A DNA stretch of 37,308 bases from a virus (Duplodnaviria > Heunggongvirae > Uroviricota > Caudoviricetes), in the IMG/VR virus record IMGVR_UViG_2684623059_000004, one strand, 5' to 3'. Below the pieces are notes generated by a model. The model was given only the letters and a program-made list of their open reading frames with translations, was not told the DNA's origin and did not search any database. Shown one piece after another: positions 35,876-36,067 of the stretch (the stretch's first letter is position 1; every line of letters begins with the position of its first letter). Position numbers and translations under genes: made by a program.

Positions 35876-36067
35876 ATGCTTGGTAAGGTATTTTTTGTGG
35901 TTTTGTCATGTTCTTTGTTATTAAACCCACTAACTACCTATGCTAGAAATTATCCCTGCTCAGGGAAAAAGGGAGGTGTTTCTCACTGTACCTCAGATGG
36001 CAAATTCGTTTGCAATGATGGAACTATTAGTAAATCCAAAAAAATCTGTACTAAAAACTCACGATAA
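35876..36067 (+). CDS. small secreted cysteine-rich protein
   Basis: 63 aa; signal-peptide-like N-terminus ending TTYA; four Cys in the predicted mature part; GGAGG 5 nt upstream of ATG; AT-rich. Confidence 0.5.

Follow-up and report, generated by a model that had tools for sequence, protein, structure and literature searches.

A YdcA-family mini-protein gene between the repressor and integrase genes of a 186-like prophage, with a predicted role in the cell envelope

What is a 63-codon open reading frame (ORF) doing between a temperate phage's immunity repressor and its integrase, and is it a gene at all? The question is raised by a window of 37,308 nucleotides, the whole stretch of DNA analyzed here (IMG/VR record IMGVR_UViG_2684623059_000004; Caudoviricetes), in which a sequence-only reading had singled out a small, AT-rich, cysteine-rich ORF with a signal-peptide-like N-terminus as an insertion in the immunity transcript that would be expressed in lysogens. 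Pfam searches confirmed its location between a 186-type CI repressor gene and a tyrosine integrase gene, with whose stop codon the window ends (Table 1). At a 99.8% identical locus in an E. coli chromosome, where the prophage adjoins rcdA, RefSeq annotates the same three genes in the same order as 'phage repressor protein CI', YdcA family protein (WP_106901652.1) and 'phage integrase'. The ORF is an already annotated member of the named, uncharacterized YdcA family, and is neither novel nor an orphan. The questions that follow are how far its sequence supports a translated and exported product, how it came to lie in the lysogenic operon, and what a lysogen might gain from it.

Identity of the gene and features of its predicted product

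Family membership was assigned via NCBIfam, PHROGs and precomputed Pfam labels. The NCBIfam profile NF007463 (PRK10040.1-2) scored the ORF at 115.8 bits (E 5.3e-34) against a curated cut-off of 93, and the phrog_6000 profile matched with an E-value of 1.9e-34, aligning residues 3-59 with profile positions 1-56 of 56; this PHROG comprises phage proteins without an assigned function. The closest database homologues all bear the precomputed PF27300 (YdcA) domain and are named 'YdcA family protein'; a local Pfam scan of the ORF returned nothing significant, PF27300 being newer than the Pfam copy scanned. The family, which is modeled by PF27300, by the NCBIfam PRK10040 models NF007462-NF007464 and by phrog_6000, is organized as in E. 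coli K-12 YdcA (b1419): a Sec signal peptide of variable sequence leads into a conserved four-cysteine motif. The ORF, with its predicted leader, shares this organization. Its motif, PCSGKKGG...C...FxCxDGxxSxSK..C, spans a domain of ~35-40 residues with columns that are invariant in alignments of 20 and of 47 sequences. Across the family, the motif starts at (N), ends in (T/S)xSxSKKxC and is nearly invariant once the leader has passed; in the numbering of the ORF, the invariant or near-invariant columns are P27, C28, S29, K32, G33, G34, C38, F44, C46, D48, G49, S52, S54, K55 and C58.

The core E. coli ydcA gene, located between cybB and hokB and annotated as a 'periplasmic protein', is a paralogue of the prophage ORF. 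The two share 78% nucleotide identity, which is confined to the mature part, whereas their signal peptides differ, as do their settings, the prophage copy lying in a lysogenic operon. Three other leads on the identity of the ORF carry no weight here: a match to the lpg1681 family reached only E 0.11 and was set aside; 'Conjugal transfer protein', the UniRef name of the identical cluster, was treated as an annotation artefact, no tra context being found in the window; and the gonococcal genetic island also contains a gene named 'ydcA', the likeness noted being that of the name.

The precursor encoded by the ORF has the features of a Sec substrate (Table 1), in agreement with the signal-peptide-like N-terminus first proposed. 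Its leader carries a lysine at position 4 followed by a hydrophobic core over residues 5-16 (mean Kyte-Doolittle 2.86), and residues 3-15 form a helix in the AlphaFold2 model. A polar stretch, NPLTTYA, comes after the core; T occupies position -3 and A position -1 ahead of R24, so that signal peptidase I is predicted to cut after Ala23, between TYA and RN. This call was made from sequence features and the family pattern, and on the same grounds the product is likely to be secreted. Of the five cysteines in the protein (positions 12, 28, 38, 46 and 58), Cys12 lies within the signal peptide and the other four within the predicted mature part, as had been anticipated; this 40-residue peptide would have a mass of 4.29 kDa and a pI of 9.7, with nine K+R against two D+E. 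The strong ribosome-binding site was also found as proposed, a GGGAGG 5 nt upstream of the ATG. A lipoprotein reading of the VLSC at residues 9-12 was ruled out: Cys12 is not conserved among homologues, comes just 11 residues after the start and has further hydrophobic core behind it, so the leader has no lipobox and the protein is not a lipoprotein. A search of the leader end for a conserved [LVI][ASTVI][GAS]C lipobox found none, and the leaders of homologues end in A-x-A-type sites, unlike the lipobox of signal peptidase II substrates.

Table 1. Positions of the features discussed, numbered from the first nucleotide of the window
Feature	Position	Strand	Basis
Side ORF region between DUF5347 gene and fil pseudogene	33764-34012 and 34239-34394	+ and -, respectively	RefSeq: hypothetical protein in identical locus
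186-type CI immunity repressor gene	35291-35860 (stop TAG 35858-35860)	+	Pfam Phage_CI_repr 2.7e-33, Phage_CI_C 5.2e-29
Shine-Dalgarno GGGAGG, 5 nt before ATG	35865-35870	+	Sequence reading
ydcA-like gene, 63-aa precursor of YdcA-family (PF27300) mini-protein	35876-36067 (stop codon included)	+	ORF list, ATG start
Predicted Sec signal peptide, codons 1-23	35876-35944	+	Hydrophobic core, -3/-1 rule
Predicted mature 40-aa domain, codons 24-63	35945-36064	+	Four conserved Cys
3' flank travelling with the ydcA cassette	36068-36177	+	With ORF in 590 E. coli genomes
int-proximal block (last ~80 nt), conserved whatever the upstream cargo	36178-36255	+	Alignment of six loci
Tyrosine integrase gene; window ends at its stop codon	36256-37308	+	Pfam Int_N 3.2e-32, Phage_integrase 7.2e-22

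Comparison of alleles indicates that the two parts of the precursor evolve under very different regimes. Against the 93%-identical allele L094, the mature part shows eight synonymous changes and one nonsynonymous change (dN/dS 0.02), and codon analysis against closer alleles gives a mature-domain dN/dS of 0.02-0.04. Against other prophage alleles of E. coli, Klebsiella and Enterobacter, including L090, L101 and L103, the synonymous sites are saturated (~20/22), and only 2.5-3.5 nonsynonymous changes are counted over 83 sites. The signal-peptide codons, on the other hand, have a dN of 0.8-1.5; in the alignments, the leader is hypervariable between homologues yet always hydrophobic, every one with A at -1. 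On these codon comparisons, the mature domain is under extreme purifying selection and the signal peptide varies freely, the pattern that marks a protein which is translated and exported and whose leader is cut off. In all 18 loci from which a copy was extracted, the ORF is intact. Conservation of the reading frame in related prophages had been named at the outset as a check on which the proposal would stand or fall, and the frame is kept, under strong purifying selection, in related and distant prophages alike. Judged from sequence, the ORF is a real coding gene, far beyond chance.

The cI-int junction as a cargo site in the lysogenic operon

The cI and int genes of phage 186 share a 1-nt overlap within the annotated pL/pE 'lysogenic operon', so the ydcA-like gene is an insertion, as first suggested; Salmonella phage SEN8 and Escherichia phage ESSI2_ev129 likewise have nothing between cI and int. 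Other relatives fill the same slot with different genes. Escherichia phage vB_EcoM-813R9, which has the same integrase and rcdA site, carries in place of ydcA a 558-aa ATPase that matches the PD-Lambda-1 defense protein in PADLOC (3.1e-120), and in Klebsiella phage 4LV2017 the slot is taken by a 349-aa ORF unrelated to these. Among further prophages of E. coli and Klebsiella (L090, L095, L101), the order is cI-ydcA-KAP NTPase-int, with an NTPase that matches the PADLOC candidate PDC-S20 (1.3e-171), and one E. coli copy of the ydcA locus is interrupted by ISApl1. The sister prophages with the KAP NTPase or the PD-Lambda-1-like ATPase share the rcdA attachment site, and their cargo makes the cI-int junction of E. 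coli 186-like prophages a small defense hotspot. Accessory-gene and defense hotspots of P2-like phages have been described, with the cI-int region among them (Rousset et al. 2022, PMC9122126), and a 2026 NAR survey placed a P2-related hotspot between integrase and primase (PMC13586616). The window gene has in common with such hotspots, and with the moron concept, its presence or absence between conserved neighbors and its low GC content. It differs from their defense cargo in that YdcA is not a recognized defense protein (a search of PADLOC-DB 2.0 with YdcA gave no family at E <= 0.01) and apparently relies on the cI operon for its expression. We conclude that the ORF is a cargo gene, or 'moron', which a 186-like prophage carries in its lysogenic operon at an already described cargo hotspot.

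The composition of the locus is less distinctive than had been thought. The ORF (35.4% GC) and its downstream spacer (36.7%) are indeed AT-rich relative to int (48.4%) and to the window as a whole (50.3%), but the 3' half of cI is equally so (33.6%, against 50% in its 5' half), so that AT-richness sets the ORF apart from only some of its neighbors. At the junction of cI and the ydcA-like gene, a minus-strand sigma-70-like sequence, TTAACA-17-TATAAT (11/12), is found at 35856-35828; it is close to consensus and faces into cI in the antisense direction, and in so AT-rich a tract it may have arisen by chance.

Within the operon, cI is the first gene and the ydcA-like ORF the next, with divergent Apl/Cox-like and CII genes lying further upstream of cI. 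A plus-strand scan found neither a promoter-like site upstream of the ORF nor a terminator downstream of it; the promoter and terminator of its own that are counted among the hallmarks of a moron are not detectable for the prophage ydcA. The anatomy supports expression in the lysogen, since only 15 nt separate the ORF from cI, there is no intervening terminator and the Shine-Dalgarno sequence is strong, and since related operons are as tightly packed: an Enterobacter homologue ends 2 nt before int, and the ATG of the homologue in Haemophilus phage HP2 overlaps the cI stop codon.

When the junctions of six loci with different cargo are compared, two parts can be told apart in the 188-nt spacer that follows the ORF. 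The ORF-proximal part is absent where other cargo precedes int; it folds into a long, imperfect hairpin (~36065-36127) without a U-tract on the plus strand, and its one terminator-like site is on the minus strand (36121-36105). The int-proximal part contains a promoter-like TTGACA-17-AAAAAT at 36203-36231, recovered in the promoter scan, and a 13-bp hairpin, AAAAAUGCUCUC-UAC-UGGAGGGCAUUUUUU, with a U-run at 36226-36255, which holds the int Shine-Dalgarno sequence and ends at the int ATG. The stem is kept by different sequences in L090, L101 and 813R9. This hairpin looks like a terminator combined with an element that sequesters the Shine-Dalgarno sequence, and it could uncouple int from the cI-ydcA transcript, whereas a transcript from the embedded promoter would lack its 5' arm; phage 186, with its overlapping cI and int, offers a contrast to such an int leader. 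The int frame is also open upstream as far as an ATG at 36100, which would give a protein of 402 aa. This extension is probably not translated, because RefSeq starts the gene at 36256 and conservation with other int loci begins only ~80 nt upstream of that annotated start.

Elsewhere in the window, an 82-aa ORF (MLNPVERERIEQLENEISSL...) is flanked by the DUF5347 gene and a truncated fil pseudogene, on the strand opposite that of the early lytic operon (Table 1); it may be a second small cargo insertion.

Distribution of the family and its relationship to Legionella Dis2

The cassette (35861-36200) was recovered in 648 of 5,426 complete E. coli genomes (~12%), 590 of which have 80% of it or more; APEC IMT5155 and UMNK88 are examples of strains with this exact locus. 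A relative is encoded on at least 535 viral contigs of IMG/VR; the best 80 matches of the IMG/VR scan were only near-identical E. coli copies and added no diversity. For the wider family, a profile search among 1.84 billion representative proteins recovered 445 clusters at 50% identity, and species-level genomes place it in Alpha-, Beta- and Gammaproteobacteria.

The position behind a repressor gene recurs. In prophages of three Yersinia species, Buttiauxella and Enterobacter hormaechei, the gene immediately after the repressor, and on its strand, is a YdcA homologue, and the same order is found in Klebsiella, Haemophilus and another Pasteurellaceae prophage. Haemophilus phage HP2 (and S2) encodes an unannotated 60-aa homologue, with orf1(S) and int after it in the pL operon. 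Oceanisphaera and Comamonas have P2-like prophages in which the homologue is found among other cargo downstream of an HTH repressor of a different type, again on the same strand. Altogether, at least about 20 of 80 species-level YdcA loci are in recognizable P2-like prophages. Other carriers differ: in Moraxella Mcat and Acinetobacter Vieuvirus phages, the homologue is found among tail genes and is preceded by promoter-like sites, which are consensus matches only. YdcA also occurs on 58 plasmids, including ~94-kb Acinetobacter plasmids, Rhizobium megaplasmids and the Acinetobacter pittii plasmid pApiMCR53a (3,916 bp, MOBQ), on which the homologue (728-904) is one of five genes; a small 'TraD' gene adjoins it there. 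Ordinary chromosomal copies outside prophages are exemplified by the neighborhoods hom-ydcA-cysS and cybB-ydcA-hokB.

Structural comparison links the family to a component of a secretion apparatus. AlphaFold2, run on the 47-sequence alignment, models the precursor with moderate confidence (mean pLDDT 77, rising to 83-90 over residues 31-60) as a leader helix and a small beta-hairpin core. The sole sequence match in the PDB is Legionella pneumophila Dis2/Lpg0823 (7MUC chain AN; structures 7MUC/7MUD), recovered by phmmer at 3e-5 for the full-length protein, by the profile at 1e-4 and by the mature peptide alone at 2e-4; Dis2 is also the top Foldseek match (probability 0.96, 38-44% identity), while a Foldseek search against viral structures (BFVD) returned only noise. 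The two proteins share the motif C-x-K-x-GG-[VI]-x-x-C...G-[KR]-[FL]-VCN-[DN]-G, and both bear a signal peptide, are pinned by disulfides and are periplasmic or outer-membrane-proximal, these features being predicted in the case of the ORF. Dis2 consists of two tandem lobes with five disulfides, whereas the ORF has a single lobe with four cysteines, and a YdcA query matches Dis2 twice, at residues 41-72 and 89-111. It is therefore probable from these alignments, but not proven, that Dis2 is the YdcA mini-domain duplicated in tandem; the statistics for each domain taken singly are weak.

Dis2 is a subunit of the outer-membrane cap in Dot/Icm, a type IV secretion system (T4SS), in which its place is beneath the outer membrane and its binding partners are the lipoproteins DotC, DotD and DotK (PMC8486379, PMC12716638). 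The T4SS papers treat it as species-specific, without obvious sequence or structural relatives, and find it dispensable for the structure and function of the system; it therefore says little about the activity of YdcA. The contexts also differ, Dis2 being assembled in a T4SS and the ORF having cI, int and 186-like early genes as its immediate neighbors. The recurrent placement of YdcA after repressors, the missed copy in HP2/S2 and the link to Dis2 all appear to be absent from the literature searched.

Possible roles of the prophage YdcA protein

We put the probability that the locus encodes a real, lysogen-expressed and exported YdcA-family cargo protein that acts in the envelope at roughly 0.7. 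As the anatomy of the operon suggests, the ydcA-like gene would be co-transcribed with cI from the lysogenic promoters and translated from its own Shine-Dalgarno sequence. Sequence features and the family pattern point to Sec export and cleavage after Ala23, and oxidation by DsbA in the periplasm would then yield a two-disulfide, strongly basic mini-protein of 4.3 kDa. By analogy with Dis2, the only solved relative, this product may act on the outer membrane from its periplasmic side. What the lysogen gains would most likely be a lysogenic conversion at the level of the envelope, and our favorite among its specific forms, a speculative one, is superinfection exclusion, in which other phages would be stopped early in infection, at a step that crosses the envelope.

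Exclusion as such is a tentative assignment that we would not bet on. We favor it because the slot otherwise carries anti-phage genes, because several kinds of mobile element carry a YdcA gene, and because a periplasmic protein in the same place in Vibrio phage K139, Glo, is an exclusion factor. Glo is described as a soluble periplasmic exclusion protein (PMC3952083), and the GenBank annotation gives the order of the K139 lysogenic operon as cI-orf2-glo-int. Glo resembles the product of the ORF in being a small signal-peptide protein of a P2-family phage whose gene lies between cI and int in the PL lysogenic operon. Homology between the two was rejected (hhalign probability 2.2% with the 137-aa Glo, over the signal peptide only), so the argument for exclusion is one of position only.

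The main rival, which we hold to be rather unlikely, is that the prophage copy serves host fitness, adding to the dosage of the core periplasmic YdcA or replacing it, so that the cell better withstands stress from acid or organic acids or at the envelope, with no part in conflicts between phages. The paralogy with core ydcA over the mature region fits this explanation, as do homologues whose neighbors are classical conversion genes, in Comamonas for example one for an MBOAT acyltransferase. Non-prophage, non-mobile chromosomal copies are moreover widespread, and with so many of its members being ordinary genes of the chromosome, the family would seem to have a housekeeping role in the envelope and not a phage-specific one. 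Experimental work offers a phenotype: a ydcA deletion in E. coli W is sensitive to 300 mM 3-hydroxypropionate, and ydcA is stated to be induced at pH 5 under the control of YdcI (PMC7642389). That phenotype, however, is a single report without a mechanism; nearly all E. coli already have core ydcA, and what a second copy would add is not evident; and the cI-int slot otherwise holds anti-phage systems.

The prophages in which ydcA is followed by the KAP NTPase gene after only 11-13 nt suggest a different explanation, namely that YdcA is an accessory subunit or sensor of the PDC-S20-like NTPase and that what the window contains is left over from a system of two genes, the partner gene having been lost. 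We consider this quite improbable. PADLOC models PDC-S20 as a single protein, and the two products would occupy different compartments, a periplasmic peptide as against a cytoplasmic NTPase. The arrangement of the window, ORF plus 3' flank, is that of ~590 of the 648 cassette-bearing E. coli genomes, and this flank is absent from the KAP-containing loci. YdcA occurs without the NTPase in Enterobacter, Yersinia, Haemophilus, Comamonas, plasmids and chromosomes, and lone ydcA copies are still under strong purifying selection.

Still less probable is an exported toxin or bacteriocin-like peptide, directed against competitors, or an inhibitor of periplasmic or host proteases, for which a small, basic, cysteine-rich product with a signal peptide and carriage on tiny mobilisable Acinetobacter plasmids could be taken as signs. 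Neither an immunity gene nor a dedicated exporter lies nearby, a Sec signal delivers the peptide to the periplasm only, and the core chromosomal copies are not arranged like bacteriocin loci. The weak, sub-threshold likeness to plant Pin-II (potato type II) proteinase inhibitors was treated as noise in the cysteine pattern (E 0.07-1.8, not significant, with a different cysteine count). Finally, a chance or decaying ORF hitch-hiking in AT-rich filler between cI and int, as a short frame without assigned function in a 35% GC tract might at first be taken to be, is refuted by the selection analysis; the scores of the ORF above the curated family thresholds and the 445 clusters of the family also speak against it.

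A broader proposal, which we think improbable, is that YdcA-like mini-proteins are widespread, unrecognized envelope effectors of mobile elements that dock outer-membrane lipoproteins and block the entry of foreign DNA. Their carriers would be the P2-like immunity operons, morons in the tail regions of siphophages and tiny mobilisable plasmids; docking from the periplasmic side, like the lobes of Dis2, would block phage injection or conjugation. If true, this would amount to superinfection or entry exclusion that is independent of the repressor.

The mature YdcA-like peptide is among the most constrained sequences of the prophage. Roughly an eighth of complete E. coli genomes carry its cassette, with relatives in many other Proteobacteria, and its product is apparently made in every lysogen. 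Should the preferred reading, action in the envelope, hold, whether as exclusion or as stress tolerance, the gene would represent a very small and easily testable lysogenic-conversion factor, and would provide a first functional handle on core ydcA and on Legionella Dis2.
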